DNA from: Psammoneis japonica
Taxonomy: Eukaryota
Assembly: GCA_008632985.1 (NCBI GenBank)
Contig: QPGO01000091.1
Span: forward strand, 248,001-312,000
Direction of reading: 5' to 3'
DNA: 64,000 nucleotides
Each line of letters starts with the position of its first letter. Positions within the stretch are counted from its first letter, which is position 1. This document shows, one piece after another, positions 1 through 56,361 of this stretch. A program made the translations under genes and the position numbers. The notes below the pieces were generated by a model, which saw only the letters and a program-made list of their open reading frames with translations, made no database searches and was not told the DNA's origin.

Positions 1-2920
1 AACCATTTTTTGCATTGCAAAACAAGCAGGGGGGCATGTGGGCAAATGCCTGATGAGTTGAGTGAATCAGCTGTTGAGTGCAACAAATGCACATCAGGAG
101 CTGTTGGCACATGAGGGAAGACAGTTGGATCTGGATTTTTTTCATTTGGGGCCACAACCAGATGTTTCTTCTTCAAACTTTCTGTGAAAAGAGCAGCAGC
201 TGCAAGGCTGGCTTTGCAAGCACCAGTCATGGGACAGCACTGTGCAAATGCTGAACATGTGTTTGTGGCAAAGGTTGTTGTGGGAGTCAGTGCCAGCATT
301 CATTGTCTCACCCCCAGGCTTGTCATGGATGATGTAAGAAACACTTCATTTCTGAGCAAACTTGTGGTGGAATTTGTGCATCAGATGAGTGCCAGTTGCT
401 TGTGGATGAGACCAAGGACATTGCAGTCACCTGTGAGATGCCTGTTTGAAAACAAAAATGAAGAGAAATGCAGTGTGATGCTGTTTCTTGGCAGATGCTG
501 GGTGGTCACAACTGCCTTTCTAATCACCCTTGTGGACATTGCAAATGACAACAATGATGTTGCAGATTGCCTGGATTTGCTTTGGATGACAGCATCCCCA
601 TTTTCAAAAGTGTCCCCCCAAATGCAGCAATGTCATCTGGTGCAAATGGTCCAGAGTGTTTTGGTTGGTGCATGGCTAAAATGAGTGCCTTTTCAACTGG
701 TCAGCCGCTGGGCACATCTCTTGCCTGTGCTGTCCATGATGCAAAAAGAAACAGGTCTTGTTTCAACAAGAATGAACAGCTTGCAAATGGGCTTTGCAGT
801 TGCACAGATGGATTTGAAATCACTGCATTTGAGCTCAATCTTATGATGCTGAGATGACAAATGTCCGCTGGGTTGCATCAAACCACATGGACCTGTTTGC
901 GTGCACAGAAATGAAGAAGAGCTGTGCATGGCATGTGGTTGTTCCCCCAAATGCTGCCAAAGTGACAATGGATGGCATGGGGGCTTTTGGCTCAAAAATA
1001 AGTGCCTTTTCTTGTTCAAGTTTCTGCTCACTTCGTTGATGTAATTCATTGCACCCATGGCATTTCTGGGTGCTGTCTGAGACAGCACAAGAAAACAAAC
1101 CTTTCAGAAATGGCAAGTGCCCAGGAAAAAGGTCTTTGACAGGATGGATTTGATGGTGCTCTGTCTGATTCAAACTCAACAATGTTGAAATGAACAACTC
1201 CAATGGCCCCAGGCTTGTGCACAGGTGGTTCATTCCTTTTGAAGGATCAGAGATGCTGATGTCCTGATTCCATGGCTGCAATCAAATGGGTGCTTTTCAT
1301 GGTTTCCTGCTTTCCTTCTTGCTCAATGTGATGCAGAGCTGCCATTGCTTGCTCTCCACATGGCACCACAGCCATGGCAGCACAGTGTTGTGACACATCT
1401 GCAATGGCTTTGCACAACAAACCTTTGGTGTTGTCAGTGGTTTGTTCCATGTGTGTTGACTGGCTTCGGTCATGCCAGCCAATGACAAGTGACAAGGCCA
1501 ACATGATTGTGCCTCCATGCTGAGGCATCACAGGGTGAGCACCCATTGGGAGATTGGCCAAAGCAATCAACGATGCAAGCTGCGCAATCACGATGCAAGC
1601 TGCGCGCATCTTCCATTGGCGCTGCAATCCCAACTCAAAAGAAGCAGCAAGCTGGTCAACCCCACATGACCCATTTCCAACAAATCAGCCTTCGGTTCCA
1701 TGGCATGCTGGAAAAGCAGCGGAAAAATGCCACCAACAAGCAATGCAACAATCAAGTGATTGTCGGTGTCCCTGTCTCAGAAACCATTTTGCTGCAAAAT
1801 TTGGAGAAGCTGGGCGGCGGCTTGACGGCATTCCTTTTGTTGAGACAAGACTTTGCCAAGAAAATGCTGTGAGCCATGCAAACCAGGCAGAGTGCAGGTC
1901 CTTCTCAACAGCCATGACAGGTGAGTTTCAACATGGAAACAATGCGTTGCCCAGTTCAGAGTGTGTCACAAGTGCCTTGGTTAAAAAGATGAAGGAGGGC
2001 ACTTGCTCCCATTGATTTGTGGATGCTGCTCAAGGAATCCAGCAATGCAAAACAAACCGGAAGAATGTCTTCCAAGACTGCAGCAGTGACATGCGGCAAC
2101 AACAAGAGTGCAACAAAATTGAGTGCCGCACAAATCTGTGACAGTGCTTCCTTGAATGGCATTTCCATTTTGTGTCCCAGTTCTTGGTCCATGGTGGAAT
2201 GTTCTGCAGTGGTTTGGAAATTGCCAACGATTCCTCCTTGATCTCGGGAAACTGATGTCACCCAAAGAAATGAGCTTGAACAGACCTTGCCATGAGTTCC
2301 ATGCCCAGTTCACAGCAAATGCATCCCCAAAGAGAATCAGAATCTTCTGGTGGTTTGACAAAGCACTTGCCCATTGCGTTCCAGCAACCAAGTGCTGCTC
2401 GAGTTGAAATTCTGGAAACTGGGTTGTTGCGCACTGTTCCATCCAATTGAATGCTGTTGAAGCAATCATCTTGAAACAGATTCACGTTGCATTAAAAATC
2501 TGTTGGTGGCCAGGTGCAGTTCGTCATCAAACTGATGGCATTTCCTGGAAGATCCTTGGTCACACTCCGTGGAGTCAGTTGAGGTGTGCCAAAGGTGAGA
2601 AGTGCTGCAGCTGCAACCATGGAAAGACACCCTGGATCCTGATTGTCTCCACAGATTGAACCAAGTGCATGACATGGAATCCTCAGCATTGTGGGAAGTG
2701 TAAAATTGCATGGCATGTTGACAGCTTCTTTCTCCAGCTCTTTGTCTTTTTGTGTGTTGCTGCCATCAACAATGCAGTGTGTCGGTTGCAAGTGGTGTGA
2801 GCACGGACTCCGTCAACTCTGTGCGAGCTTTTGTTTTGTTTGGACCCATCATTTCTTTTTTACAATTTTGCTCAAGAGGAGTTCACAATGCTTCAAAACA
2901 TCATTTCCACAACACCACGG
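1..2920. repeat. Hypermutated (TpA- and CpG-depleted) block 1; degenerate repeat/pseudogene sequence, left end outside the window
   Basis: Almost no TA and few CG dinucleotides, strong TG/CA excess; overlapping ORFs in all frames almost lack Tyr; abrupt return to normal TA content at about 2925. Confidence 0.75.
1250..2790 (-). pseudogene. Decayed host-like helical-repeat gene, TTI2-like (tentative)
   Basis: Frame-broken minus-strand segments LEDILPVCFALLDSLSSIHKSMGASALLHL, LIVALLVGGIFPLLFQHAMEPKADLLEMGHVGLTSLL and AQLASLIALANLPMGAHPVMPQHGGTIML read like one HEAT-type protein resembling the TTI2 family; family assignment is from recollection, not a search. Confidence 0.35.
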
Positions 2921-4489
2921 TTCATCCATAACATTTGCGTCTGTAGAGCGATATTTTTAGTACCAGCGTAGAAATAGTACTTAGATCTTGTGTAGACTTG
3001 TGACGGCAAGACCGCAACGGAAGATTGCACATTTTTTTTCTCAACCCGAAACCTTCACCATGACGCTGGAAGTGTTTCGACGGCCATCGTAAGTGTATCA
3101 TGTACTGACAATCAGCGTATTGTATCATTAACCTTCGAAGGAATATCTCACAATGCTTGTTTGCTTGAAATTGCGCGGAAATTAAAGAAATTCAGTTGCC
3201 AACAATCAGGAAGAAATGTTGTAGCATTCCGAGGGTGCCGACAAGTAGTAACACGGCGGGGTTTCGTGTCTGTTCATCTTATTGAACCGACAGCTGGAAT
3301 ATTGTCTCTTTTGAATATTCAAGGTGAGTTAAATGTGAACATTACAATTCAAAACAATCCCAAAATATCGAAATGTGCTTTTCAATTTTCTCACTTTCAA
3401 TTTCTTCTCTCTTGTGCACTCTGAAGAAGAAGCAAGAGTACTCGATTGATTAACGCTTCTGTTACAGTATCAAGGTCTAACATTGTCATATGAGAACGCA
3501 AGAATGCGAGTGTGGTGGATCAACTGCCACATTTAGCACCGCTGGTTTGTTTTTTGCTCCGTTCGACACCAGTCGTTGCACCTGTCGATTCCACCCGCTG
3601 CGCCGAGGAAAGAAAGTGAGAAGGCCTTTTAGTTTTCGTTTCATTGTGGCGCAAAGCTCTTATGTTGTCGTCAGTGTGTGTAAGAATGCGAATGTATGGT
3701 TTGAAGTGTTTGGTATTGACTAAACCTTGCTTTGCCTTTTGTTGCACATTCTCACTTTCAACATGTTCTCTCTGTGGACTCCGAAGAAAAAGAAGCGAGC
3801 ACTCGTTTGATTTTAGCTTCCATTGCAGTGGTAAGCTCTCATATTGTCAAGTGGATATTCACGAATGAGAATGTGGGTGCATCATGTACCACCATGTTCA
3901 TCGGCTCGTTTGTTGCTTCCTACATTCGACACAAGACGTTGCTCCGATCCAAACCAACCGGTGCAGAGGAAAACAGTGAGAAGGCTTAATGGCTTTTGGT
4001 TTTATGCGGTACAAAGCTCTCATGCTGTAGTTTAGACATGTTAGAATGTAAATATGGCTTACACTTTTTACTACTGACTAAGTCTTTGCCAAAACAGTCG
4101 ACAAAGAAGGCGCATTAGCTAGCAGACGAAGATGGCGAAACAGGATTCCAAAAATGTGTCGGTGATGTTCGCAACATTCCCGCTTCAAACCCTCGGTACA
4201 GGCTTCCCATATATGCTCGGTATGTATCAAGGTTGGCATATGGAGCCATCGAACCGAGGGTCTTCATACCTTTACCCGACATTACGCAACGGCTTTCGCT
4301 CATCGTCGAAGAAAAAAAAAAATGTTTTGCGCTACGATCTTTGTTTCTGGTAGAGCACTCGTAGAAATCTACGTGCTAAGTAAGACATGTGTTTATTCTG
4401 AGAATTCCGAATTCCTACAACATCGTCTGTAATTGACACGAAATATTTTTAGTCATATGATTCGACGCTAACACCACCGCACGTAGAAG

Positions 4490-5050
4490 TTGAACCGTGG
4501 TGACAAGCAGTCAAATGACAATCCTTTGTCGTCAAGATGTTGCCGTGTGCCGTTGTCACGCAACCCTTCGCAAGACGTTGCGCAAGGTGTCTTGTGGTGT
4601 TGTGAATCTAACTCACACAGCTGTGCCACCACACAAGATGAGTTGCAATGGGTGGCATGTTCATGGGCTGACCCAGAAGCTCATCAAATTGTGGTGCATC
4701 CACCACTGTTGTTTCATGGTGTGTGTTGGTTGCTTGCAATGTTCAACAAGCGCCGACCCAACTTTGTTCTGAGTCCAAGCTCCCTTGGTTTGGTTCGATG
4801 TTCGATCAGCATGTTGTCTTTCGAATCCCACGAACAGAAAGAGTTCCGAAACGTGTGGCAAGAACAAGAAGTGATTGATTGTCACAGCCAAGGTCACCAC
4901 GCGAGAAGCAGCAGGAAAAGTGTCGCGGCAGAGTGCACACGGAGACGAAGACGAAACGGCATCATTCTGAATTCGCTGTTCGTTAGCGCGGAGCTCTGTA
5001 GAATTCTACACATTCTCAGTGCCAATGAAAAAAGTGCGCCAAAATGGGAG
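4490..5050. repeat. Small TpA-depleted, CpG-retaining island (probable TE fragment)
   Basis: About 550 bp with very few TA but many CG, flanked by TA-normal intergenic DNA; the 212-aa ORF over it has no Tyr. Confidence 0.5.
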
Positions 5051-5390
5051 AGCGAGCGGCAACCTTGTATGAGCCTAACTCGACAGAAAAACTTAGCCCA
5101 AAAACAAAAACGTTTTTTGTTTTCGTGACACGCGCGACGGCCTTATCGCCGAACAAAAACAAAAACACCCCTTCCATACATTTCTACGCCAAACCACGTA
5201 TGTACGGATCCACGCGCTGACAATACCGGCTCCAGACGACCGCAACAAACAGAAGGGGCAAGACACGCAATGGCGTGTTCGAATCCATTTTATGACGGCA
5301 ATTGTCGATCAATCATGACACAAGGCAATACAGTCGATACTATTGATTGAATGTCATCTATAGCATAAAAGATAAGGTGAAATATGGTAG

Positions 5391-5745
5391 CTTATGTGCA
5401 GAATACTAGTACAACAGATCGGTTGTCAGAAAAGCACTGTTCTTGTGTCGTGTCATCACAAATGCGAATCATAAGGCGACTAGAGTGATGGCTAAGGCAA
5501 AAGTAGAACCTTATATGGCTAATAAAAATATGGCGGATTGAATAGTCACGTTCTTTCCTCCCTTCCACGTATCTTATGTGCAGAATACAGCGGATCGTTT
5601 CATCATGCTTGTGTTGTGTGGTCACAAAAAATGCAAGCCATAAGGCATCTATAGTAAAGGCTAAGGCCACAGTAGAACCATATATGACTAATGTTAATAT
5701 GGAGAATTTAATGGAAAAGCTTTTTCCTCCTAATTCTACCACAAG
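5391..5745 (+). repeat. Diverged tandem duplication, period about 170-180 bp
   Basis: CTTATGTGCAGAATAC at about 5391 and 5573; CATAAGGC..TAGAGTGATGGCTAAGGCAAAAGTAGAACCTTATATGGCTAAT at about 5470 versus CATAAGGC..TATAGTAAAGGCTAAGGCCACAGTAGAACCATATATGACTAAT at about 5639. Confidence 0.7.
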
Positions 5746-6090
5746 GGGGCGCATCGCGTCGATGTGTCGATGTATCAGCCATGGTCGTCGCAGGTAGTGG
5801 ATTTGTACGTGGCGAGACACGTAGCTGCGTTTTTGTGAGCATTTTTTTTGTTTCCACAAAAACGTGGGGTCGTTTTTGTTCACGAGTACTCGTGAACAAA
5901 AACGAAAGTTTTAGTCGAGCGAGTCAATGTGAAGTCGAATGGGTCAAATGCGTTTTTGTTTTTGTGCGACGATAAGGGAGGGGCTTATGCCACCGGGGAT
6001 TTTCGCAATGCGCTTTCTCCTCATTCATCAAGCCGAGTTCTGATAATACCGACTGGAGTGGCAAGTCTACATCTGATTGACAATTCATCA

Positions 6091-6669
6091 ATGGTTTGCA
6101 TTCCTGGCTTGACCGAGGATCTTTACGAGGCTGGCACGAAGCATTCCGCGGCGACTCCGAGACTCATCAAGTCGCAAGCGAAAAAGGATGGCAGTTTTGA
6201 CTTTGAGTGGGAGGCTAGGGGTAGCAGCACCTACGAGCTTACAGCGACTGGTAAGCTCGGTAGCGACTCCTGGAAAGGAATGAATGTATATTGTACCTGT
6301 CCTAACTATGATGAGCAGGATTTAGCGACCACAGAATCTGGGTGGAGGATTCTGTATGTTTGCAAGCATTTGAAGGCTGCACTCGATAGTGTGTGTGACA
6401 CGGTTGACAAACAACGCAAAGCAAAATCAGCTGTAAAACGTAAAAAGGATCAAGATCAGGAGCTTTCAGGAGAGCGAGAGCGGCTGGAGTGTGGATTTTC
6501 CAAGCGAACGAACGACGAAATTGTTGAGCTATTGAAGAAACGGATGACAGAGTCGCTCGATGGCCTTCAGGCCGTCGCCAATGTCTTTCCGCCCGAGATC
6601 ATGCCTCCAGAGCAAAACAAGTCGACTGAAAGCCAAGCGACCAAATCAAGGAAATGCAGGAAAGCTTAG
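6091..6669 (+). CDS. SWIM zinc-finger domain protein
   Basis: ORF contains YCTCP-x(n)-VCKHLKAAL (CxC...CxH SWIM motif); first in-frame ATG at 6091; normal dinucleotide composition. Confidence 0.7.
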   Translation: MVCIPGLTEDLYEAGTKHSAATPRLIKSQAKKDGSFDFEWEARGSSTYELTATGKLGSDSWKGMNVYCTCPNYDEQDLATTESGWRILYVCKHLKAALDSVCDTVDKQRKAKSAVKRKKDQDQELSGERERLECGFSKRTNDEIVELLKKRMTESLDGLQAVANVFPPEIMPPEQNKSTESQATKSRKCRKA

Positions 6670-7219
6670 AAGATGCCTTTGAGCAATGAAAATTTAGTCG
6701 GTTATTATCCGTTACCTGTGAATGCTTTCAGCATATAATAAGTTGCGATCCTACCATACACTATTCGACTTCAAAATTCCTAGAGAGGATAAAGTCATAC
6801 AGTACCTCTAGAGGGCCTACCTCGTATAAATACATATCTAGATCTTGTGGGCGGGAAGGCGGGAAACCCTACCGGTACTGTACAACACTCAGTTCCTGCA
6901 CAAATCTGAACTTGGACGCAGAATGAATGAATAGTTCTGTAATGACACGTTCTTGAGTGGCGATTGCATGTGCTTGCCTTTCTTTGGCTGTTCCATCATG
7001 ATAAGATACGGTATGCTAATTGATTTTTCGAATCACAGCAAAGAGAGGAAAATCGCGGGCAAAAACGAAACAGGCTTTACTGCTGAACTTTTGCTACTGG
7101 TAGGATAATTTACCGCAAAAGCCGAAACCTCAATATGTATTCTTCCATGATGTCTTTCCCGATCTATGGAACTCAAACGTGCAAACAGCATGCAGGATGC
7201 GTGCATGATAGATCTTGAT

Positions 7220-8297
7220 TTAAGCATTCTTTTTCTCCTTTGAAATTCTCCACTTGAACGCAACGAATCGTCGGAGAAAGACTTGCAGAAACAACACCAG
7301 AAAGAGACCGTACATTATTCCCATTTGCTGCACCGTTTCTTTTTGTACGACGCATCCAGGAATATCCTCCACATAGGAAACCCAATAGAAGAACGGCGTC
7401 AAGGCCACGCCCACCACCATTTGTGAAATTTGAGCAATGGTAATCCACTTGGGATTGAACCAAGCCGGTTTGGCACGGATCGACATTAAAAAGTAGTAAA
7501 AGTACATGATGGAGTGAACCCCGTAGTTCATGGTGACAATAAAGATACCCATGGTAGGAAACTTGTTGTATCCGTGCCACAAAAGGTAAAAGACAGTGGC
7601 ATGGTGAAACCAGTGAAGAAAAATGAGCTTCTTTTTGTGGATAATGATGAAGAATGTATCCAAGAGCTCACTGTAATAAAGATTGAGACGCGGGAAGAAA
7701 GAGCGAGTATACTGAGAACGACACAAGCCACATATCATTCATACTCATCAAACTCATTTTAAGGAATACGTACGGCATTTTGGAAAGAGTAAAGAGTTGT
7801 CCCCACAGTCCGGAACTACCACTGCCACCGGTGCTAAATGGATCCAAACACAAGCACGTGCGCCAATCGTAGTAATAAAAGTTGTGAGCCAGTTGAGGTA
7901 AGGCGCGGATAAAGCCCACCAGACTGAAGACCGACAAGAGCAAGTTCCAAGCGGCCAACGCACGACGCCAGTTCCAGGCGGGTCGATTGGCAAAGTATGC
8001 ACGTCCACCAAGAATCATCAAGAAGTAACCTACAAGGACGACGTTCGGGAACCACGAATTTTCTGCCATCCAGTCTTTCACTGGAGTAGGATCATAGAAG
8101 GGCTCGAATCTGAACCAATACAAGAAATTTGGATGAGACGCTCGCGTGGCGCAAAGAAAACAACAAATTCTGCGAACTCACGGGAGATAGAATCGACCGA
8201 TTGTTTTCGGATAAAGACAGGACAGTTCCTCGTAGGGAACGCCCGCGCCATTGTGGCTCATGCACGTTCCGGTGGGGTCCGACGGGTGGAACTCCAT
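7220..8297 (-). CDS. ELO: Fatty acid elongase (GNS1/SUR4/ELO family, ELOVL6-like); exons 8297-8182, 8109-7774, 7670-7220
   Basis: Spliced product MEFHPSD...FEPFYD...LSKMPELLDTFF...FLHWFHH...MNYGVHSIMYFYY...ITIAQISQM...KEKKNA (ER-retention-like tail); GT-AG introns 8181-8110 and 7773-7671 restore the frame and the KxxExxDT motif. Confidence 0.93.
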
Positions 8298-8426
8298 GTT
8301 GCCTACAGCTCGCCGAGTTTGATGAAGCTTTCACACGAAAGAGATGAATGATGCGTTCACTTCAAATGGAAGCAAATAATGCGCACGAAAAATGAAAAAT
8401 TGGTTGCACTATCTGCAACCGCCACG

Positions 8427-11400
8427 TAGTACGCGCGGTCGCGAACTCTCGGGTACTATCCAACAATGAGAGCCCTGACTTTAACGAACCTTCATAGATT
8501 TGATACAGAATCGCCGAACGTTGCAAGCAACCAAAAATCGGTAGATTCTACACTGATGTAATTATTAATGTACAAATACTCTATAAATTTTTAAGCGGGA
8601 CAAAGTTTCCCGAAATAACGTCCTGAACTGTAGTTTCGATATTTTTGAATCATACTATTTTAACGACCACGGTTTTGGTTACCAATGATCAGCGATTTGA
8701 AAAAACCTAAATCCCTTATTACTTTCTAGGTGACGTACAAAGATGATAACTTTCTCTACAAGACCCACCATTTGGCTGGCGTTGCCGTGTAACCGTCAAC
8801 CGTCAAGCTTCCAATCGATTCATTCTCTTTGATGACGGTTTTGATCCCACTGTGCTGTTGAGTTTTGAAAATCGACAGACGAACTGTGTTGTTGTGTGCG
8901 GCACGACGGAAACAACAGGCGTCTGTTTCTCCCCAACAATGCGTAGAAAATCGCGCAAACAGCCCCAAACCACAATGAAATGAAAACTGCAACAAGAAGC
9001 AGGCCTCATTTTGTCAAACTTTCAGTGCTTGCTCACGACAAGCAAGCTGTGATGAGCCAGAATCTCTTGGCACAACATGAACTGGTGGTGGTGTGTTGCG
9101 CAGCAGCTTCCACCAAAACCATGCTCCAAGTGACAAGCTTTGCATGCTTTCATTTTGACATTCCTGAATTTGCTCAGTGCACTTTCTTGGGGCAAGCACA
9201 TGCAAACATGTGCGCTTGCCCCGATTGTTCTGCGTTGCGTCCTGTGCTTTTTGCATGTGTCCCGTTTGTGCACATGAAAGCAACTTTGTGCAGTGTCAGC
9301 AGCCAGCTCTCATTTGCCTGCTTTGGCTCACCACACAGAGCACAGGGACTTCACACAGCGCAGCTCTCTTTTGGCGTTTGTCTGGAAGTCATTCCCGTCA
9401 CACTGCGCAGAACCCCGGCAACAACTCCAGTGCTGGCGGCAACACTCATTTTCTCTCTGAAACATGTTTCCTCATGCTGTGCACAGCCATCCACAACTCT
9501 GCTGCAGAGAAGCCCACTTTTCTGTTTGTTGCTCCTGCTTGCACTTTTTGCAGGTTTGTTTGGTTTTCAAGCATGCTAGCTTGTTGTTGCCTTCCTTTTC
9601 TGCAGGAGCACCCCTTTTCTCAGCAGAGAGAGCTGCAGCTTTTGCAAGCTTCTTGTGTTTGGCTGCTCCAACAAATCTTGGGGGGGGGTGCCATGCCAGT
9701 GAAAAACAAGGAGCTGTGGTGCAAATCATGAGCCAAGTGAGCACACCAGATTTTGAACAAAAACTGATCTTTGGAAGCAGAGATTCTCACCACAGCAATC
9801 TTTTTGTCTGCCTTTTGTTGCTGAAGTTTGTCATTTTGTTGTGCAGAGGAGGAGAGGCATGGAAAGAGCACCCCCACCCTTGCTCCTCTTGTTGTTGCTT
9901 GCCACAGTGGTGTGAAGAGATCACACCACCAGAGTTGAGTGTGATGGCTGGTGCTGGCCAAACTCATTTTTGTGTGTGTGCTCCTTTTCTCTCAAGGTTC
10001 TTCTCTTGCTGGCCCCACACCACCACAATGCAGCAAGCAAATTTCCAAGAAATGGGGAGCAGTGTGCCCACCATTGCTCACACACAAACTGTGCTTTGTG
10101 CACATCAAGTGACATGTTTTTTGAAAATTGTGGTTGATTTTGGCCAAATCAACCTGTTGTTTAAAAATTGCATCAGATTGCCCTGGGTTGCACCAAATTG
10201 CAAGGCAAATTTTCCCAAGAAGTGATGCAATGTGCACTGTTCTTTCAGCAACATCTGCTGCTCATGGCTGCTGGCTTGTGGCTTGTGTGCTGGATGATGT
10301 GGTGACTGAACACCATGCCTGTGTCAAGACACACAGATCCACATTTTGAACATGGACACACCACACCATGATTGTTGAAGATTGTCCTGCTTTGATGTGA
10401 CTGCACACAATGCTCTCAGATGCTGCAGCAGCCTGCTCAAAACATGGTGTGTGGTGGACAACAACTGGATGGCACGCCAGCACACATGTTGCCAACAAAC
10501 AACTGAGGATGCACGCAAATGCCTTGCAATGCAGGCCTTCTAGACAGAGGCAAAAGTGTGCAACACAAGCGCACAAGTTGGGCAAGCCCACACAACTTTT
10601 GCACTCAGCTAGCCCACTGAGCAGATCATGCATTGAGAACATGATTGCAAGCACTGCACACTCAACTGCCTCCCACAAAGTCAAGTAAAGTGTGCAAAAA
10701 GACTTTGCACACAAAGCTGTGCATTGTGCAGCACTTGCTCAGATCCAAGATGATCTTGGAGCAAAGAAGCCATTTGTTGATGTGACAGACAAGGAGAAGA
10801 GTTCTTTGTCCTGCAACTTGTAAAAAAACAACTGACATCACCGCCAGAAAATCCATTTTTGTGAAGAGGAGAACCTCTCCCACCTGGAGAGATGAGCCAG
10901 CCAAAATTTGCAGTCACACCCTTTGAGGTCCTCTGTCATCCAGATTGGGCAGCAGCTGCACGGATGGAGAAGACAACCAAAATTGACATTTTTCACATTT
11001 TCCCTCTCATTGTGGTGTCTTGCTGAGCAAGTTCACACATCTCACTTCACTTGAGCTGCTGCAGAAGCACTCCAGATCTCATGCATTTTGGAGACATTTG
11101 TGGCACAAGGCAAATCCCACACCTTTTCACCTGGATGATTTTGAACCCATGCCAACCCAGATGCAACCAACAGACACCACAGCTCTTTCAGCTGCAGCCA
11201 GCTTGGCCAAACAATCTGATGAGCAGGACTGTCCCTTGGTGTTGATGCCATGTGCCAAAATTTCCTTCCTTGTCTCAGAAGGGATGCAACTCTTGACACT
11301 CAAATGCTTTGTTCATCTGTGATCTGTGTTTGTGACTGAGCACTTCTTGCTGCCATTTCAATCACACTGCTGTTGTCTTCAAATGGTTTTGACAGAAAAA

Positions 11401-14400: not shown

Positions 14401-15259
14401 TCATCAAGATTGGGCAGCTGTGCTGATGGAGCAGAAGACAACCAGAGCTCAACTGACACATTTTCACAGCCACTCCCTGTCATTGTGGTGTCTTGCTGAG
14501 CAAGTTCACAAATCATCACTTGAGCTGCAAAAACATGCCAGATTCCATGCACTTTTGAGAGATGTGTGGCAGGACAAAGCCCCCTCACCTTGTTGCATTT
14601 TCACACGGGTGATTTTGAGGGCTGCTTGCCAACCCCAAGGATGCAACCAATGGACACCACAGCTCTTTCAGCTGCAACCAGTTTTGTGAAACAATTGGGT
14701 GGCCAGTCTTGATGTGTGGTGTGCTAAAATTTCCTTCCTCTTGTCTCAGAAGGGGCACAACTTGACATTCAAGTGTGTTGTTCATCCATGATCTGTGCTC
14801 ATGAGCACTTGCCATTTCAAGCACAGTGCTGTTGTCTTCAGACAGTTTTGAGTTTTGACAGAAACAACTCTTTCACTTGAGTTCATTGTGCACTTCCATG
14901 GAAAGGACAGCTTTTTGCAAGGAGCACAATGAGCCAGTGTGCTCAGATCATGGTGTGCTGCTTGGGCTGTTTTTCAGTCTGCAGCTGACATTTCCAGAGA
15001 GTTAAATGGCCAAATTGCACAACTGCATTCCCATGTTGTCCTCCCTTCTTGTTGCCACTGAAGTGAGTGCCCACATGCAAAATTTAAGGACCTTGCCTTT
15101 GACAAGCTTCAGAATTGTGTCCTTCTTCTTCCTGGTCTTGCACAAGCACCTGCCAAGCCAATGGGAGTCATTTTTCTGTGTGGGCTTTGTTCTCAGATCT
15201 GCCATGAACTGTGTGCATTGGTGGGTGGCTGGTGGGTGCAGCACTGCTCTTCTGCAAGC
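8427..15259. mobile_element. Repeat copy A (6.8 kb) of a degenerate, unclassified element; nearly identical to 17389-24202
   Basis: Direct alignment with copy A' at an offset of about 8960 bp; starts TAGTACGCGCGGTCGCG; identity ends at ...CTTCTGCAAGC; interior depleted of TpA and CpG. Confidence 0.85.
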
Positions 15260-16689: not shown

Positions 16690-17388
16690 GTCCGATGTAG
16701 CGTGATCTTTTCGAGACCACAAAGAAGAGATTCGATCAAAGAAGTGTGAGCAAAGAGACGAAAAGGATGAATGAACATCAAAAGACCACACGAGTGCGAC
16801 CGACATTTCTCTCCACAAAACAAACAGACAACATGCACAAGACAGGGGATGATTTTTGCATCTACAACAAAGAGATGACAGCAATGGCACGCAACAGAGG
16901 AGGTGCATTGAACGAATGAACATCAAAGTGTGGATTGTGTCAATTCCATGTGTTTTGGTGTTTCTTGTCGATGCGAGAGAACGATGTTTCTCGACACAGC
17001 CCCCCACTCACAGCACACCCAAGACACAGAAAACTTTTCGTGACTGTGGTCAGTCGATGTCAGCAAAGGCAGTCATCAGATGAAGTGAAATGAGCGAACA
17101 AACATCCGAGTGTGGGTTTTGCCGCTCAGAAATGGCCAAGACAAAAGCAAAAAGACCCATCTTTCGATTTCTGCACAACCACAACGCCGTTTCTCGCCAA
17201 ACCAAGGCTCTCACCTAACAAGTCGACCTCCCAAAAGCAACATCCGTGTCTTCAATGAACGAAAACGATGAAGAATGGGTCAAACAAGGCCGAGTGTGGG
17301 TCGGCGCAGCGTCATCTCCAAAAAAACAACTTCACGTTCCGAAAAAAAGTCTCGCCGCGCTTAATCCCACGGATCGCGCGAAAAGCAA

Positions 17389-31096: not shown

Positions 31097-31208
31097 AATG
31101 TCGCTGTGAGTGAAGGCAAACCCTCCTGCACAGCATGCACACAAGTTGGGGCACCCAGCCATGCACTCACTGAGAGTGATCCACTGGGGCAGAGGGCGGT
31201 GTCTCATC

Positions 31209-41841: not shown

Positions 41842-41866
41842 TTTCTTGATTGAATGGGTGTTAGTA

Positions 41867-44190: not shown

Positions 44191-44192
44191 CG

Positions 44193-44575
44193 TGCATTGT
44201 GCTCAAAGAACAAGCATGAACAAAAGCAATGTAAAGAGCAAAAAGTGAAAATCACAAGATTGGATTCTGCTCAAGAATCATTTTGGATTTCTCTAAACTG
44301 GCTCTCAACAGCCCAAAGCTTCTGCGCTGCTTCTGCAGAACAAAAGGCCTTTCGGAGAATGCAGCAATGACAACAGATTGTCCGGATGTGATTGCCATTG
44401 ACACTTAAGATGTTGACATCGTCAAGCAATTGCATTTGCAATTTTCAGCATCTGATCAATTCTGTGTGATTGATCTGTGCTTTGCACAAACTCATGAGCT
44501 GACACAAGATTGAAATGTGATGACATTTGAGTGTGTGGATGTGCGTGCAAAATGCACATGACAACGCACATTGCA
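44193..44575 (-). mobile_element. 3' LTR of a Ty3/Gypsy retrotransposon
   Basis: Begins TGCAATGTGCG immediately after a purine-rich tract (GGAGATGGAGATGGA, plus-strand 44576-44590) downstream of integrase; homologous to the solo LTR at 31209-31587. Confidence 0.8.
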
Positions 44576-47300
44576 TCCATCTCCATCTCCACAATTGCAC
44601 ACCAGAGTCATTTGTTGAACGGTGTTGTGCAACAAATGTTGACAGTGTCAATGACATCACCACATTTGACCTGCACTGTGCCATCAGCCAGCATGTGCTG
44701 CCATTGTTGTCACATGCGGCCCAACACAGGGCTGTTCTAATTTTGGGAGTCTCTTTTGTACAGTGTCTTTTCTCCTGCCCCATGCATGTGCGGAGCATGT
44801 CAAGCATTCTCACAAGCATTGTTTTAATTTGTGATTTCTTGTTTTTGTTTCTGGACAAAGTTCCAACCAGCAATGTGCTGGACACTGAAAATCATGTCTC
44901 TGTTGAAGAAGCCTGGTTGTTCTGGTGTGGCTTGCACAGCAGCATGACACACAGAATGCACTGCAAACGCCACTGCTGACAGCTGACAACATGCCAGAGA
45001 GTGGATCATCTGCATCCAGGGGTGCATTTTGCAGGTCCAATGTGCACAGCACACATTGCCTGGCACTTGATGCAGCATGTGTTCAATGATTGTGCTTGCT
45101 TGTGGATTTTGTGCAGTCATGAGCTCACATTTGGTGCCACAGTCCTCTTGAACCATGTTTCTGAGTTGGTGTCCGACAAACTCATCACCACAGTCAACAA
45201 TGGCCATGGACATCTGCTCAACCACATTCTTTCTAATGGCCCAGCTGCAGTTGTGGATTCCTCATTTGGAGTTTCCAAAACTTCAAACCATCCAGTTGCT
45301 GGATCAACCATTGTCAAACATTTTAGGACCAAGGGTTTCTTCTTCCCCTTGCAATGCATCTTGTGTGGTTCAATGAGATCCACACATGGCCATTCCCATG
45401 GCACCAATTCTGTGCACTTGGGGGGCAAATGTCCACATTTCTTCTGTTTCTTCTTGAGCTGTTGGCGTGTCTCACATTTTGACACAGTTGTTGTGAGATT
45501 GTTTCTTCTGTTCCATTTGTGCCAGGGTGAAGAAGGCACATGTGGCACCAATCTGTCACTGCCTTTTACAGTGTCTTTGGTGCAATGACTTTGTTCTCAT
45601 GACATGTGAGCAACCGGTCTTGCTCACCTCCACAGAAAGTGTTTGGATGACATGTTGCATTCTTTGACAATTTAGAGAGAATGTCTTTGTCCTGTCACTG
45701 TTCAGTGTCAAGAACTTTGCATGATGATGGAAAGACATTATCACAGGATTTTGGTGGGACCTTTTCAGTCAATTCTTCTGTGCTGAGATTTTCCATGGGC
45801 TCCATTTTTCTCACAGTGAGTTGGCTGATCACATTTGCAACAATGTTGGCCTTGCCCTTGAGGCAAATTGTTTTGTGACTGCATTTCTTCTGTCACTGGA
45901 CACCAATGCATGACTCTGTCTGTTGTGAAGTTCTTGTGTGTGAGATTTTTGTGATCTGTGCACACACTCATCTGTTGGCCAAACAGCACATTTCAGAACT
46001 CTTTCAGTGTGTTTCCACAACAGACAGCAATTGTTTTTCTGCTGCAGCACAATGCGTCTGTGCTCCATTCAGCTTGCGGCTGCAGAAAGCAACAGGCCAG
46101 TTGTTCTGCACAACAACCACCCCCAATTGAGAATTGCTCACACCAGCACATGTCTCAAAGGGTTTGTTGAAATTTGGGTTTGATGACAGCACAACTTTTG
46201 AAATTGTGCGCTCTATGTTGTGGAAGGCTTTTTGTTCCATTTTGGTCCATTGCCACTTCACCTTGGATGAGGCATGTGATTGTCAAGGCCACATGTCTCA
46301 ACAGCAGTTGATCACCCCCACAAAGCTTTGCAATTCCTTGCAAGTTCTGGGAGGAGCTGCAATCATGCAAATTGCCTCCACTTTCTTTGATGTTGGTCTG
46401 GCACCTTTGTGGGCAACATGAAAGCCCAGACAGCCCACCTTCGATGTTGGGCAGAGGGAAATGGAGTGCACATTGATCTCTTGCCCAGTTCATGAAAGTC
46501 AGACAGGAACCAAACTTGACCATTTTTCTTTGGTTGAATGAAGGCAAGAGCCACCCATTTGAAACAATTTGTTTTTCTTAAGACTTTCAACTTGCACAGT
46601 CTTTCAACTTCCTTTCAAGTGGTCACATCCAAGGCTTGTGGTGCAGGAAATGGCTTTGTGTGACATGGACTTGTGCCCAACCTCAACTTGAGATCCACAG
46701 GTTTCCCGGTCCACTCACCCAGAGAACCATTGAAAAGGTCTTCAAATCTTTTTAGGAGGAAATTCAGCTGCTTCTGCTCCTCTGGAGTTAGATGAGTTGC
46801 CGCTGCAGCCACATTGTTGGGGGTGGCAGCATGACAGTCTGAGCCAAGCATCCAACTGACCCTGTCATTAAGACCAGTCACGGCATGAGATTCCTCAACA
46901 TGACCAGCAATCAACTTGAAAACATCAGCATTGAAGAGTGCATCAACATTTTTCACAGGTGCAGTTGCATCCTCTGTGCACATGAAATGCACACGACAGT
47001 GCATGTTGCAACTGTCTCAGGCCCTGCTCCATTCCATGACCCCCACTCTTTGATTGAGAATGTCCCAGTCATTTGACCTGCATTGACAGCTTCAAGCACC
47101 ACTTTGACAGACATGGCTGACGACACGAGGGTCCAACAATCACCCAGCAAACCCTTTGTTGCTGCACTCTTTGCACTTTCAAGTTCACTGGTGTGGGCCA
47201 CAGTTCTTTCACAGGATGGCATCAATGCATCCCTTGCTGAACTGTTGCTCATTGGACTTGATGTGATGAACCTGTCTCCTGGCATGCTTTTTTGAAACAA
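44576..47300 (-). mobile_element. Degenerate Ty3/Gypsy pol (RT N-terminus, RT thumb, RNase H, integrase, GPY/F); RT catalytic core deleted; matching 5' LTR not found
   Basis: LLKRFEDLFNGSLGEW...FIQPKKNGQVWFLSDFHEL..FPLPNI; FVGVINCC*DMWP; QLGVVVVQNNWPVAFCSRKLNGAQ..EKQLLSVVE; VCTDHKNL; GHLPPK..PWEWPCVDLIEPH..LTMVDPATGWFE..WLSRCPWP; NPQASTIIEH; KLEQPCVGPH. Domain order RT-RH-INT is Gypsy. Confidence 0.92.
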
Positions 47301-48193
47301 TGAAACACAGCAGAAACTTGAAAAGATCATTGTGCTTCAGCTGCAACAACGTTGACAATGTGGAAGCCACAGCACTCAGAAAGTTGCTGAAAATGGCACA
47401 CAACACCCAAAAGATGCCCCCCCCCCCCCAACTCAAATGGATCTTCCTCCAGCATCATTGTGGTCACCTGGGGTCTCCAAGACAATGACTCTTTGGTGCA
47501 CCTTGGTCTGTTGGGGAGCAAAATTTCTGCTGGCGGGGCTTTGGCTCTTTTGAGTGCAGTTAAAAAAGAGCTGTGCCATTGAGCAGCTGGAAATGCAGCT
47601 GCATTGTCTTGATGAAAATGCAGTCTCATTGACCAACCAGATCAGGTTCTGCTGTCACTTAAACCAGGTGTGGGATGTCAGCGCATTGGAGACATGTCCC
47701 TGCTGTTTTCCTTGTTGCCCCTCATCTCAGCCAAGAAACAAACCAATGAAAATTCAGGTTTGCTTTTTGGGATGATTCGAGAAAAGCCAGATCCCGCAGT
47801 CACAGCCCAAGGCCCGGTGCAAACTAAGAAGCAACGACACGGCAAAATCTGAGCTGAGCTGAGCTGAGCTGCAGACCCGTTTAGAAAACTGCTCAGGCGG
47901 GAGGGCGATAGAAGCATCGATGACAGCAACGTTTGGATCACAGAGTAAAGTGTCTCTCTGTAAATAGTGCAATTCGCTTTTGTAAATAAGAAAAATTTGT
48001 TAATCTAGATGACATCACTTTGGCATGCGTGCATGAGGGGGTTGCCAATGCGGTGGATAAGCTTCGAACACCTCGCTACGACAAATCCACAAAAGTTTCA
48101 TGCCGTCAATCAAGCAAGAAGGTAGCGGTAAGTGTGCTATCTATTTAGCAAGACAATCATTTGGGGGTCCTTGAAAGAGTTAACAACATATAC

Positions 48194-49264: not shown

Positions 49265-49823
49265 TGTTCATTCCTCTCGAATGGAAAGCAAGTACAATGA
49301 CAGCAGTTGATGCCAATCCCATCAAATACCAAATTCGCGGTTTGTTTTTCAGCACAAGATCAAAATTTGGAATCGTTTCAAATTTGTCGTGTCTCCCTCC
49401 ACCTAATTCAACGACGCTTGTACGTAGGATTTGTATGAGACTGAGGTCATTGATCAATGTCGCAACGCAATCGTGAATAAATAGAGAAACGTCAGTGTTT
49501 AACCAAAGGTTATTTATGCAAGAGTCATTGTCTTGTAAGATTTATGGATTTGATTGCTTAGGGAAGGCACATACAAAATGTCTCGGTATGAATTTTCATC
49601 CATTTCCTTAGAAACGGAATGATAGGGTCACACAAACGGGGTGCAATGACAGACGGTGTATGTCGACAACCGTTCAATAAAAATTTCTAAAATCTCCATC
49701 CAACACTCGACAATCGTTGCGGTTGCTGTTTTGTCACTCTGCAGCATACCGTAGCAGGAATAATCATCGTAGATCGCAAGCTACGTTGTTTCATCTCTCA
49801 AGTCTGCTCCAACCACTATCAAC

Positions 49824-52500
49824 ATGGGCCGTCGTTGGAACAAAAAACGCAAGGCCGAAGATCGGGCGAGAAAGAAAAATAGCAACAAGTCACGCAAGGA
49901 CTATGTTCCGATTTTTCAGGGACACCCGCGCATGGAGGCCTACTATGCACTTCAGGGATTGCACTCTCACTCGATTCAAAAAGATGGAACGTTGAAAGAA
50001 TGCAAGACAAATCAAGAGCATGAAGACGAACGTGCCTTGTGGTTGAGCACCATGCGTCACACTTTGCCCGCATCGTTTCGGATTGGAACTTACGTCGACG
50101 AGTCGTTGCGGGAACGATTGGAACACGAGTTGGACGTGCACGTGGGGACGGAAATGGAGATTGTCGTCGAAGAAGACGAGGAGCGGCATTTTGTGGACCC
50201 ATCCAAACAACCTGCCGCTTCGAAGGACCAAGATGAAAAGAAGACTAAAACGAACACGAAACAGATTGCTCCCGCGAGAAAAATTCCCTTTGTTCCACAC
50301 GCTTATCAACTCAGTGTCGATCGTCAAACCATTCGTCGTAACGAAGCCTTGACGGTCTTTCATGAATGGCTCAAGGTTCAAACGACTGCCGGGTTCATTA
50401 CAAGACAGGAAACCGTCTCTATGATTCCTCCCGTTGTGTTGGACGTACAACCTCATCACATGGTATTAGACATGTGTGCAGCGCCGGGTTCCAAAACGTC
50501 ACAACTCTTGGAACAAGTATCAACGCCATGTAGTAAGGGTGATTACGAGCCACGCGGATGCGTCGTGGCGAATGATTCCGATGCCAAACGGGCCTACATG
50601 CTGGTGCACCAGTTGCGTCGCATCAACAGTCCAGCCGCCTTGGTGACGGCGTGTGACGCACAATTCTTTCCTCTGCTGAAATCTAAAGAGGATACGCAAA
50701 ACGGCAAGGAGGGCATGTTTGATCGAGGTGAGAATATTCTATTGTTGATTATGAGTGTCTTTATTGTTTCGTCGTATTGCTAAGCTTCTCGCTGTTATTT
50801 TTCGTCTACTTTCAGTTCTCTGTGACGTTCCCTGTTCGGGAGACGGCACGGCGAGAAAGAATCCAGGGATTTGGAAACACTGGAATAACCTTGGTGCCTT
50901 GGCGTTGCACCCCTTGCAAATCTCAATCACCTTGAATGGCGCTCGGCTCACCAAGGTTGGTGGTTACGTTTGTTATTCCACGTGCTCCATGAATCCCATT
51001 GAAAACGAAGCCGTCGTGGCCGAAATTTTGCGATCCACGGACGGATCTCTGGAATTGGTGGATAAACGTCCGGACCTGCCAGGCCTCGTGGCACGTCCTG
51101 GTTGGACATCGTGGAAAGTGCTCGCCGAAAAGGGGACTCGCAAACAAGCGAAAAACAAGAAAAAGAAGAACAATGCCAAAATGAGGGCAAGGAAAGCGGC
51201 GTGGGAAGAAAAGCAGAATAAAGAAGAGGCAAAAGGGGACGGAGACGAAGAGCCTCCGAACAAGATTCAGAAAGACGAAGAAACGGCAGATGTTACAGCA
51301 GAAACCAAGGACAATGTCGAGGATGACAAGTCATCAGAAACGGCAGATGACGAAGAAGATACGATCAAAAACTTAGGTCCTCCGCCTGCGTGGGATGAAG
51401 AAACCCTGTCTGAGCGAGCCAAGTTGGCAGGCTTGGAGGAATTCAAAACGTTTCAAGATGTTCCCGAGGAACGTCGCCGTAGGATTCGTGAGTCCTGCTT
51501 TCCTCCTACAGAGGAGGAGGCGGCAAAGTTTGGTCTAGAGAAGTGTTTGCGCTGTCTTCCCCATGATATGGATACGGGTGGATTCTTTGTCGCACTCTTT
51601 AAAAAGGTCGCCCCGCTTGGTGAAAAGGCAAAGGAGCGTGCAAGGATTCTTGCATTGGAAATTCGTGGTGACGTGAATGAAGACGGGACATACAAGACTG
51701 CAGAGGATGGTACAGACGTCAAGGACTCCTCGGCCGTGTCCGCTTCTGAGACTGGAGACGACGTCCTTATGAAGGACGCAGCCGAGGAAACTGAATCGAA
51801 CATATCGGTCAAAGATGAAGACAATGGCGTTAATGAGGAGGAGAAATGTTCTACTAACGCCAACAACAAGATTGTTAAAGGGAACGCCCTCCATCGTGGA
51901 CGAAACAGGACTCGTGGCAATTTGGGGAACGAAAATTTTATACCAATTAGCGAGGATATCTGGGAATCACATGTTGAGTATTATGGATTTTCCTCGTCCT
52001 TTCCTAAAAGCCAGTTCATGGTGAGAGCAAATGGCGGCGCCAAGGTGCTGTATTTCATTTCGAACACCATCAAGACAGAATTGATGGATCGTGGTATCCA
52101 GGAACGTGTCACCATTATCAACTCGGGTCTCAAGGGATTCGAACGCAACAACAAGGATTGCGACGTCAAGTATCGTGTTTCACAAGAAGCCATTCATTAC
52201 GTTGCGCCTCACATGACAAAACGAAAAATCGTTTGCAGCTTCCAAGACTTTTCTGCCTGTTTAGCCCCAGGAGCTGTTCGCTTTGATAAGCTTTCTTCGG
52301 AATTTGTGGATGCCGTGCGGCCATTTACGGTGGGGTCCTTTGTTGTAGCGTTGGAGGGTCACGAGGACAATATACTCAAGAAAATGTTTATGGTGATGTG
52401 GAGATGCAGGGTTGATGCTATCAACTGCTTGGTGAACAAGGCCGAAATGGATGGGATGAGAAGCAAGCTCCGAGCGATCGAAAACGAGGCAAAAGAGTAA
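49824..52500 (+). CDS. NSUN2: tRNA (cytosine-5)-methyltransferase NSUN2/NCL1/Trm4; intron 50728-50815
   Basis: ITRQETVSMIPP, VLDMCAAPGSKT, FDRV|LCDVPCSGDG, YSTCSMNPIENEAVV, CLRCLPHDMDTGGFFVA. Confidence 0.93.
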
Positions 52501-54350: not shown

Positions 54351-54659
54351 TGTGAAAGAGATCAGAAGCGACGAGTCAGTGGTGGCATGTGTCGAGCGAT
54401 TGTTGCCTCCATTTTTGTTCTCGGATTCCATTCTTTCATCGCGCGCCAATGACGTGGATTCTTCAACTTGCCCTCGCATCTCGCGCGCGCTCGAGCGTTG
54501 TTTGTGTGTCCTCCTCCTACATGGGTGTGAGCATTCGATTCCCAGCGTTTGGAGTTCAGAGTGAGGTCTCCGAGAGGTTACCTCTAGAGCAGCAGACTAG
54601 GAAACGGAGCAATCAGCGGTTCTCTGCTCTAGCATTAAGCAAGGTAGACTTTAATTCTT

Positions 54660-55947
54660 GTGTTGTTGAGAAATGCAAAGAAGGATTGAATTTCATCAGC
54701 TTGGTTCTTGCTCAGGTCTTGAAATGTCCTCCACACATGAAATTCCAAGAAAACAAAAAACCCGCAGCACCAGCTTTGTCATTGTTTCGTTTGTCAACGA
54801 GATGTCACTCGACAATTGATTTGCACTCAGTGACACAATGCTCCACACTTGGTCAGTGTGTGATCCTCATGCGAACTGAGCTGAGTGGTGGAATTGCATC
54901 CGTCGTTCTTTGCGCTTGAATGTTCGCAGCGTTCACAAACTCGCACTCCTTGTCTTCCAAATTCTTGAAGCGTGGGCCAGATGGGTTGGGGTAATTTGCT
55001 CATTCACATTCTCTCTGTGGGCCCTGGTTCCCATGCATCTCGCATCGAAAACAGGCAATGTCCAGCTGGCGCAAAAAGCAATCATGTGGTTTCTGCACAT
55101 CGCGTTTCACACAAGGAGCCGCCATGCCACGCCATCAAGTCCTTGCAAGGGTGCCTCCTCATCATCTGAGTGCGCAAACATCTTGGATGCAGGCCCTGTT
55201 GGGAATCAGCCAGCCTTGGTAAATGCCGGGCTGCACACATTGAATCGACTCCTCATCGCGCATCAGACAACTCGCCCAAATCGTCAGCGAGCTCTTTGGT
55301 CATCATTCTCCAATCTGCAGGTGCTCAATGTGTTACGTTCATTTCCTGCTAAGATGATTTAGACATGGGACGTAGGTGGGGATGCAGCTCCTTGTCCGAC
55401 AAGGTAAAGTTTTGGTCACATCCCATGCAAAAAAAAAACTGAATCCACACTTTTAAAGGACCGTCTCTTCTCCGGTGTGGCAACTGCATTCAACACTGGC
55501 AAGTCGAATGTGACCTTCCTTGTTTGCTTCAATGGGAACAGCACCAGAATGAGCAGTGACCTTGTCCATGGCCATGAAGGTGTGCTCACAACAATGCTCT
55601 CTCTGCACCCAACTTGACGCCCACAAACACGCAATGTCTTCCGACAAATGTGCTCCCAACAAGCAACACCCGTTTGCCTTGCACATTGGCTTTCAAGTCA
55701 CGAGCTTCATCAGAATGAATTACCGTGCCTTTGAAAGGCTTGCAAAGACCTTGACTAGAGATTCTGGAATGTGCGAAACACAGTCCGGTTGAGGAGTTCG
55801 TTCAAAGCATGTGAAAAACGGAAGAGGACAAAAGGCGCCAGCAGTCTTCCTCTTCATTCTTTTCTTGTGTCATTTTTCGGTGTGTCTTAATTGCTTGACT
55901 AAAGCGCCACACCCGAACACGGCAATGGTTGGAGCTTTTGTCGTCAT
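54660..55947 (-). pseudogene. Flavin-containing monooxygenase (FMO) pseudogene, internally deleted and TpA-eroded
   Basis: MTTKAPTIAVFGCG (first Rossmann motif, ATG 55947); PFKGTVIHS (FxGxxxH fingerprint, about 55711-55738); GKRVLLVGS..SEDIA (second Rossmann motif); VDSVFF/CMGCD corresponds to DxVIFCTGY; frameshifts and stops. 3' limit approximate. Confidence 0.7.
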
Positions 55948-56361
55948 TGTCGATGTTGTTTTGTAGGGCGTCAGTTCGTTGGTGAAAATTGAAATTGTGA
56001 GACGGCCGTTGTGTTTGGGTTAGCGGTTTGTCTCACCGAACACCAGAACGAACCCCCACCATAAATAAGAGCTCTCAAAATTTTCATGAACGCGAACTAT
56101 CTACAACGGCTACATATTATTAATATTCTACATATTCAAATATATTGGATAATCGACGAATTTTCCCTCACACTTTGAATGCATCAACGCGAGAAAACCG
56201 GTTGTCGTTTGGCATCTCTTTGTGCTGACAAAAACTCCAAAAAGTACCGCAACCTTCCTTTTGATAAAACACCCTAGAGGTGCCTGCCTACCTACCTACC
56301 AGTATAATCTTCTCTGGTGATTCGTAAACTGTATTGAAATCACGGCAGAGTTCTTCAGCAC

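Follow-up and report, generated by a model that had tools for sequence, protein, structure and literature searches.

Why does more than half of a 64,000-nucleotide stretch of a diatom genome lack the dinucleotide TpA almost completely, and was this composition a property of the sequences concerned or was it imposed on them by their host? The stretch, hereafter the window, comprises positions 248,001 to 312,000 of the forward strand of contig QPGO01000091.1 of Psammoneis japonica (assembly GCA_008632985.1), numbered here from 1 to 64,000; the analysis covered this single 64-kb window. An initial annotation of the window, made from its letters, had described a two-state genome with sharply bounded blocks void of TpA and CpG, and had attributed their shared composition to the host rather than to one family of transposable elements (TEs). 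This attribution is supported by directional changes in a duplicated host promoter fragment, by the independent outcomes found in different copies of the same repeat, and by the normal TpA content of 11 loci related to the Ty3/Gypsy element of the window.

In order to delimit the blocks, 200-bp windows with at most two TA dinucleotides were called, a separate 500-bp composition scan was run, and the distribution of observed/expected (o/e) TA ratios was obtained from 300-bp windows. Segmentation resulted in eight blocks (1-2844, 4570-4907, 8858-17357, 17771-27788, 29804-32279, 36204-38780, 42156-47809 and 54737-55788) summing to 33,459 bp out of 64,000. Within them the o/e ratio was 0.05 for TpA, 0.23 for CpG, 1.81 for TpG and 1.82 for CpA, as against 0.54, 1.01, 1.17 and 1.20, respectively, in the gene-bearing rest, and only 113 TA were counted where about 1283 would be expected from the density outside. 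The TA ratio was bimodal (90 of 213 windows below 0.1, a trough of 9 windows at 0.2-0.3 and a second mode at 0.3-0.7), and at the block edges TA density changed over approximately 100-150 bp. The seven blocks of the initial annotation (35,126 bp) gave TA ratios of 0.05, 0.11, 0.05, 0.04, 0.04, 0.07 and 0.15, compared with 0.50-0.70 in the seven stretches between them, and its hand counts proved exact (1 TA and 3 CG at 12001-12300; 15 TA and 15 CG at 57901-58200).

The two-state description holds for TpA, which is bimodal within the window, and fails for CpG, which is graded and separable from TpA depletion, being near-normal in some TpA-poor stretches (o/e 0.85 at 4490-5050, 0.71 at 54660-56050, and 0.68-1.14 at 15501-17500). 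At some edges, moreover, the CpG boundary lay 100-200 bp inside the TpA boundary. G+C content was 0.47-0.48 in the blocks and 0.44-0.50 elsewhere; it is unchanged because the loss of TA raises it while the loss of CG lowers it, and the blocks are therefore invisible to scans based on G+C. An origin of the blocks as simple repeats was ruled out, since Tandem Repeats Finder (TRF) detected two short arrays in the whole 64 kb.

Compared with the remainder of the window, 1169 TA and 1413 CG (2582 in all) were missing from the blocks, which had gained 1350 CA and 1276 TG (2626 in all). Smaller dinucleotide shifts, such as the rise of GC and the fall of AT, arise because changes at TA and CG alter the neighboring dinucleotides. 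The direction of change could be read from a duplication found by self-comparison, in which 8429-15264 recurs at 17391-24208 with 98.6% identity. This 6.8-kb duplication includes 429 aligned columns of TpA-normal DNA from upstream of a host gene, and the features concerned are the following:

7220-8177, minus strand: host gene, an ELO-type fatty-acid elongase as judged by eye, in overlapping open reading frames (ORFs) 7220-7738 and 7668-8177
8429-8857: flank A, the unmutated, TpA-normal copy of the fragment, at the block edge upstream of the 7220-8177 gene, with 31 TA and 25 CG
8858-15264: void block, copy A of the 6.8-kb duplication, containing units of an approximately 4.5-kb repeat that have diverged to 66-75% identity
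15265-17390: spacer repeat S1, TpA-void, CpG-normal and of high copy number (15501-17500: TA o/e 0-0.13, CG o/e 0.68-1.14)
17391-17821: flank B, the half-converted copy of the fragment, embedded between void blocks
17822-27788: void block, copy B of the duplication as far as 24208, then unclassified void DNA (17771-27788: TA o/e 0.04, CG o/e 0.16)

Among the 31 TA of flank A, 12 were kept in flank B, 11 had become TG and 8 had become CA, while 22 of the 25 CG were kept and 3 were converted (61% of TA vs. 12% of CG); none of the 317 other positions had changed. At all 22 substitutions between the flanks, A carried TA or CG and B carried TG or CA, with no reversed case. Nineteen were A>G (11) or T>C (8), the remaining three were CpG transitions, transversions were absent, and none of the 19 converted TA had reached CG by a double conversion. 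Background divergence, taken from the void part of the same duplicate, amounted to 13 of 6243 other positions (0.21%), so that by our estimate the rate per base exceeded background about 450-fold at TA and about 60-fold at CpG. In the void duplicate the two copies differed at 6 of 19 TA and 15 of 48 CG sites (CG vs. TG or CA), and of the differing TA sites three had been lost in each copy. Since the embedded promoter fragment was mutated and both copies of the duplicate were still losing TA, the process acts on DNA in place. The TpA/CpG pattern is a directional mutation footprint and not an intrinsic composition. The initial annotation had also counted gene copies among the contents of the blocks; this was not borne out, as none of the 139 ORFs taken from the TpA-normal parts had a tblastn match in the blocks at E 1e-3, and the duplicated promoter fragment is the only host-derived piece in them.

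TG and CA were nearly balanced in all eight blocks (e.g. 896 vs. 979 and 1081 vs. 1185), as in flank B (11 vs. 8): both strands are used equally, by single hits that destroy their own target. The TA sites that survive depended on their neighbors (Y, pyrimidine; R, purine). Counts in void DNA and outside were 64 vs. 197 for YTAR, 43 vs. 611 for the mixed classes and 6 vs. 363 for RTAY, a difference in survival between YTAR and RTAY with a Fisher p of 2e-20; for the mixed class, a model in which each strand is hit independently gave a survival of 0.073, and 0.070 was observed. The A in 5'-TAY was changed about 3.6 times faster than that in 5'-TAR, the order of the 3' base being T>C>G>A, and according to our own reading of the contexts 14-15 of the 19 conversions in flank B obeyed this TAY rule.

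Older copies of repeats gave the result expected if each copy had resolved an ancestral TA or CG independently, namely double differences in which one copy has TG and the other CA. Of the aligned double differences, TG vs. CA pairs made up 23 of 69 and 14 of 52 where diverged 4.5-kb units were compared, 6 of 19 in another void repeat pair, and 2 of 28 in a control, the TpA-normal tandem repeat at 3388-4081. A further record was provided by the one block with a recognizable TE:

42156-47809, minus strand: void block, degraded Ty3/Gypsy element with pol (reverse transcriptase, RNase H, integrase) at 44611-46974

The Pfam scan of void-block ORFs detected RT_RNaseH_2 here (E 1e-13; 46007-46282, minus strand), and with related pol ORFs (loci L001-L007) tblastn found reverse transcriptase (RT), then RNase H, then integrase along the minus strand, in collinear order between 46974 and 44611, which is the Ty3/Gypsy order of domains and agrees with the Gypsy element named in the initial annotation. 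The remnant contained frame breaks and 10-12 stops in the aligned columns, and long terminal repeats (LTRs) of the element were not found by self-comparison of the window. At the 26-33 positions aligned with Tyr in four related pol proteins, the window had Cys 13-15 times and His 2-5 times; none of its most frequent residues at these positions was Tyr, and all aligned columns together held a single Tyr. The far more frequent change of Tyr codons (TAY) to Cys than to His is a consequence of the TAY preference. Trp was retained at 10-12 of 12-16 positions, while Arg was often replaced by His, Gln or Cys. In the alignment to protein P0124 all three Tyr corresponded to Cys in the window, and among longer proteins one homologue of the mutated RNase H ORF was found.

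Eleven related Gypsy loci (nine from metagenomes and two from IMG/VR) were used as controls. Their TpA o/e was 0.70-0.94, compared with 0.08 for the pol of the window, so that the TpA void is not a property of this element lineage; all 11 being TpA-normal, no second host with TpA erasure was found among them. In six of the metagenome loci (L002, L004 and L006-L009) whole-locus CpG o/e was 0.09-0.29 with a normal TpA of 0.72-0.88. CpG decay without TpA erasure is thus the common state in hosts of this Gypsy lineage.

Read evidence came from contigs of public runs, with word depth counted at k=31. Run X1, probably derived from the source sample of the assembly and with no library type on record, contained 89% of the sampled words of 24300-34299, while runs X2 and X3 covered little or nothing of the window. 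An X1 contig of 5201 nt spanned void DNA, a kinase gene and void DNA again (26051-31247) with 7 differing letters and a word depth of 65, compared with 56-70 for genes, and further X1 contigs covered 17644-24202. In the one X1 contig aligned at 15486-15824, all 10 differing sites had TG or CA in the window and TA (7) or CG (3) in X1, which we read as a less-mutated second copy or allele of the high-copy S1 repeat and as a sign that such sites still vary.

The remaining TpA-depleted stretches were more heterogeneous:

1-2844: void block cut by the window start, unclassified; TA o/e 0.05, CG o/e 0.21; no Pfam match
4485-4983: small TpA-void island with near-normal CpG, unclassified; one TA; CG o/e 0.85 over 4490-5050; no Pfam match
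29804-32279: void block; repeat of very high copy number at 30641-31974; 122-bp tandem array at 30854-31095 (TRF); TA o/e 0.05
36204-38780: void block, unclassified; TA o/e 0.05, CG o/e 0.16; no Pfam match
54737-55788: partly depleted block in an intermediate state, unclassified; TA o/e 0.15, CG o/e 0.65; no Pfam match

A total of 240 void-block ORFs were scanned with Pfam: the 124 of at least 90 aa gave one TE match and one weak DUF5000 match below the cut-off, and the 116 of 55-89 aa gave no match. Besides the 6.8-kb duplication and the 4.5-kb units, self-comparison detected similarity between blocks in a single repeat pair (31209-31506 and 44193-44494, 79% identity). Word depth in X1 showed 16634-17300, 25305-26638 and 30641-31974 to be multi-copy to very high-copy, with values of 4232-9354 in the 30641-31974 repeat and 132-1211 in S1 (about 1200 at 16634-17300) compared with about 56-70 in genes. 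S1 is probably a young repeat. If CpG o/e is read as a clock, with TpA serving as a fast switch, the youngest targets would be S1, 4485-4983 and 54737-55788.

Many long open frames of up to 430 aa were observed in the void blocks (e.g. 15718-17007 on the minus strand and 18242-19285 on the plus strand), because the stops TAA and TAG have been erased. These frames have no Tyr, are rich in Cys and His, and retain TGA as the only stop; gene finders could call them as orphan genes. The TpA-normal parts carry genes for an ABC-F protein, an NSUN2-like methyltransferase, a glycerate kinase, a leucyl-tRNA synthetase, a protein kinase and an ARM/HEAT protein. The best matches of the glycerate kinase were from diatoms (Seminavis, Nitzschia, Fragilariopsis, Skeletonema and Cyclotella; 56-63% identity), in accordance with the diatom origin assumed in the initial annotation, and point to a diatom with no near relation in the database searched. 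The coding region of the NSUN2-like RNA methyltransferase (49773-52500, plus strand) is divided between frames that overlap, 49773-50783 and 50755-52500, which hints at an intron or a change of frame. The same applies to the two ORFs of the elongase gene at 7220-8177, whose family was assigned by eye from a translation that includes the histidine-box-like FLHWFHHATV. The window contains one ambiguous letter, an N at 63859.

Taken as a whole, we consider it probable (about 0.7) that the blocks are relics of transposons and other repeats changed in place by a host process that turns TpA into TpG or CpA, accompanied by a slower and separable loss of CpG. The elementary event would be a region-targeted A:T>G:C transition at the A of either strand of the palindromic TpA in chromosomal DNA. 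Its chemistry may be an enzymatic deamination of adenine to inosine in DNA, for which a TadA/ADAT-type enzyme or another protein with a deaminase fold is possibly responsible. TadA/ADAT enzymes act on A34, which in tRNA comes after the invariant U33, and the sequence read by bacterial TadA is U-A-C-G; by analogy with this preference the T-A-Y motif would fit a TadA/ADAT-like reading, which we mention as a lead only. Targeting would depend on chromatin or silencing state and not on homology, because only the embedded copy of the flank was mutated. The window does show that the process halts within about 150 bp at the edges of gene-bearing DNA, and that a copy of a promoter fragment is mutated once inside a block. 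The loss of CpG may represent ordinary deamination of methylated CpG in silenced transposons, a reading suggested by its being slower, by its absence from the TpA-void S1 and by its boundary lying inside that of TpA.

Several observations weigh against parts of this explanation. The intactness of flank A could reflect selection on a functional promoter instead of protection by chromatin. As TpA is its own complement, A>G and T>C are indistinguishable, and adenine deamination is something that we infer. The CpG loss could instead stem from a minor deamination of cytosine by the same enzyme; S1, with its normal CpG, is only weakly inconsistent with a preference of 7:1 for TA over CG. The TAY rule was obeyed by 4 of the 8 late S1 conversions that were checked (seven at 15486-15824 and one at 17070), which is expected where only refractory sites are left, yet lends the rule no support. 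A TE domain was present in just one of the 240 scanned void-block ORFs, and the blocks 1-2844, 4485-4983, 36204-38780 and 54737-55788 are unclassified and lack independent evidence of being repeats. X1 excludes an artefact of assembler or base-caller only if its reads are accurate short or high-fidelity (HiFi) reads, which their depth and the accuracy of the contigs suggest. Overall, the data covered are one 64-kb window, one read run and the 11 related Gypsy loci, and the enzyme is putative.

Among the alternatives, an unlikely one is a chemistry of thymine, in which the T of TpA is modified in silenced DNA (e.g. to 5-hydroxymethyluracil or further) and is misread or misrepaired as C. The observations on mass balance, flank conversion and neighbor context can all be restated as T>C in 5'-RTA, TpA being palindromic, and in dinoflagellates 5-hydroxymethyluracil occurs preferentially at TpA and TpC. 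A modified T, however, normally still pairs with A, and we know of no modified thymine of this kind in diatoms, no search for it having been made, which we count against the idea. In the available part of a preprint on the chlorarachniophyte Bigelowiella natans, in which a comparable TpA hypermutation is described, the authors favor adenine deamination, although without proof (Mettrop et al., 10.64898/2026.01.13.699255).

Of a similarly low probability is a true analogue of repeat-induced point mutation (RIP), whose trigger would be duplication, sensed through homology, and not chromatin state. Those blocks that could be checked are indeed repeated now or were so formerly, as seen in the 6.8-kb duplicate, in the diverged units of 4.5 kb and in the segments of high depth, and flank B, with its 429 bp, is a duplicated sequence too. 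Against homology sensing, changes occurred in one flank copy only (22 in B, none in A); moreover, the loss of TA and CG continued in both copies of the duplicate, although most of the void DNA now has the depth of a single copy.

Editing before integration, whereby the RNA or cDNA of a transposon is deaminated by an ADAR- or APOBEC-like enzyme and the block edges are the ends of elements, appears very improbable. Sharp edges would follow from it naturally and one block is a retrotransposon, but the strands were hit equally in every block, a promoter fragment that is no transposon was mutated in place, and the loss of TA continued in both copies of a segmental duplicate (three differing sites each). 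ADAR, in addition, favors a 3' G, whereas a 3' purine is disfavored here.

Hardly more credible is an artefact of sequencing, in which a long-read base-caller would have taken modified bases of silenced DNA (N6-methyladenine, 5-methylcytosine or others) for G or T and the errors would have been left unpolished. Such miscalls would be transitions tracking chromatin state, and, alone among the observations, the ten TA or CG differences in X1 at 15486-15824 would be predicted by an artefact as well. X1 contigs nonetheless reproduced the void blocks at gene-like depth; word depths of 55-110 at k=31 appear unattainable with error-prone reads, and in accurate reads, as those of X1 seem to be, modified bases are read as the parent base. 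The TG vs. CA differences between diverged copies, and the frame breaks and stops of the Gypsy element, as expected of genuine ancient decay, likewise speak against miscalling.

The least probable explanation, a composition intrinsic to the elements or selected in them (avoidance of TpA and CpG, e.g. as an evasion of a host nuclease or sensor), could draw on the high-copy, CpG-normal S1, which may have spread already poor in TpA, but is contradicted by the directional change in a fragment that is not a TE, the independent TG and CA outcomes between copies, the loss of conserved Tyr and Arg from pol and the 11 TpA-normal relatives, and has already been disproved as far as the Gypsy element and the duplicated flank are concerned. 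Photoproducts of ultraviolet (UV) light at TpA were also discarded, as the changes reported for them in the available part of the source are A>T and AC>TT, not A>G (PMC10160025), and UV would ignore block edges. GC-biased gene conversion was ruled out, since CpG shifts in the opposite way and TpA alone is affected.

As regards known systems, RIP in fungi acts mainly at CpA, which increases TpA and gives rise to AT-rich isochores, and it mutates each of the two copies of a duplicate. It is described for ascomycetes, in the sources available in part, as C>T changes in duplicated DNA. The blocks resemble its products in that context-specific transitions have permanently inactivated repeats and left a dinucleotide footprint usable for annotation. 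They differ in that TpA is erased (o/e 0.05) and G+C unchanged: no C>T change raising TpA and lowering G+C was found, and one copy of the flank carried all 22 changes while the other carried none. With TpA erased, G+C steady and a single flank copy hit, RIP itself was ruled out.

The decay of methylated CpG in vertebrates, plants and many protists is matched by the loss of CpG to TpG and CpA, which is confined to the blocks (o/e 0.23 vs. 1.01), and by the related Gypsy loci of other hosts (CpG o/e 0.09-0.3). Cytosine methylation has been linked to transposon control, and diatom methyltransferases have been studied, according to the portion of the source that was available (PMC9998398). Methyl-CpG decay leaves TpA alone, whereas in the window the loss of CpG is the slower of two processes.

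ADAR and APOBEC have RNA or single-stranded cDNA as their substrates, and the footprints that result are strand-asymmetric. The blocks share with these systems the outcome of restriction by a deaminase, i.e., hypermutated relics, but differ in that the strands are equal and chromosomal DNA was changed in place. No strand-asymmetric footprint limited to an element was found, and ADAR/APOBEC-type editing of intermediates was therefore ruled out on account of the missing asymmetry and the change in place. ADAR usually prefers a U 5' of the edited A, as stated in the available text of the B. natans preprint (10.64898/2026.01.13.699255).

The closest counterpart is the process described in that preprint, the comparison with which draws on the part of it that was available (10.64898/2026.01.13.699255). 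On this basis, a mutational defence that erases TpA has so far been documented only there, in a single 2026 preprint on a chlorarachniophyte. In B. natans, TpA hypermutation affects the integrated DNA of giant viruses and virophages: in two such viral regions, mutation was approximately 1000 times faster in mutation-accumulation lines and consisted almost only of A>G and T>C, all at TpA, giving TpG or CpA depending on the strand. These are new mutations in propagated lines, seen in some lines only; the footprint left over the long term is mild (Rho TpA 0.45 in the viral region), reverse transcriptase and DDE domains are overrepresented among coding sequences low in TpA, and the authors propose an ADAT2-like adenine deaminase. 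In the available text diatoms and CpG receive no mention, and the words "context" and "trinucleotide" are absent. For diatoms, no report of TpA depletion or TpA hypermutation was found in the literature that was covered, most subscription journals being outside that coverage.

If the reading of the blocks as in-place relics of a host process is true, a TpA-erasing process is placed in a second and ecologically dominant algal lineage, and its action extends beyond integrated viruses to transposons. It would be constrained mechanistically by the use of both strands, single hits, the TAY preference, the gene boundaries and the independence from CpG decay; it would explain why such blocks escape repeat annotation based on G+C or on homology, and it would suggest that a DNA adenine deaminase recognizing a defined motif may exist in nature. 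A TpA o/e track, proposed in the initial annotation as a library-free annotator of TEs, might serve as a simple annotator of repeats and heterochromatin, but would miss a repeat such as the one at 3388-4081, where two tandem copies of about 335 bp with 70% identity lie in TpA-normal DNA. A much broader proposal is put forward only tentatively, and we regard it as possible though doubtful: that diatoms carry a silencing-guided DNA adenine deaminase, a natural TpA-specific A>G base editor which targets the A of 5'-TAY on either strand of chromosomal DNA and so provides a lasting defence of the genome, that it is homologous to the Bigelowiella system and either ancient within SAR or spread among marine algae, and that it has shaped a large share of diatom sequence without changing G+C.

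Within the limits of the available preprint text, the two cases are alike in the near-exclusive A>G and T>C changes, in their restriction to TpA, in their local action far above background, and in the location of the changes in foreign or mobile DNA (four blocks of the window being unclassified). They differ in that the process in B. natans is live in cultured lines and mild, whereas in P. japonica a relic footprint is read from the sequence, saturated (o/e 0.05) and covering about half of 64 kb, with transposons and repeats as targets, sharp edges at genes and a stramenopile instead of a rhizarian host. To the picture given for B. natans, the window adds the decay of CpG, a rule for the 3' neighbor and the spread of the process into an embedded fragment of host DNA.

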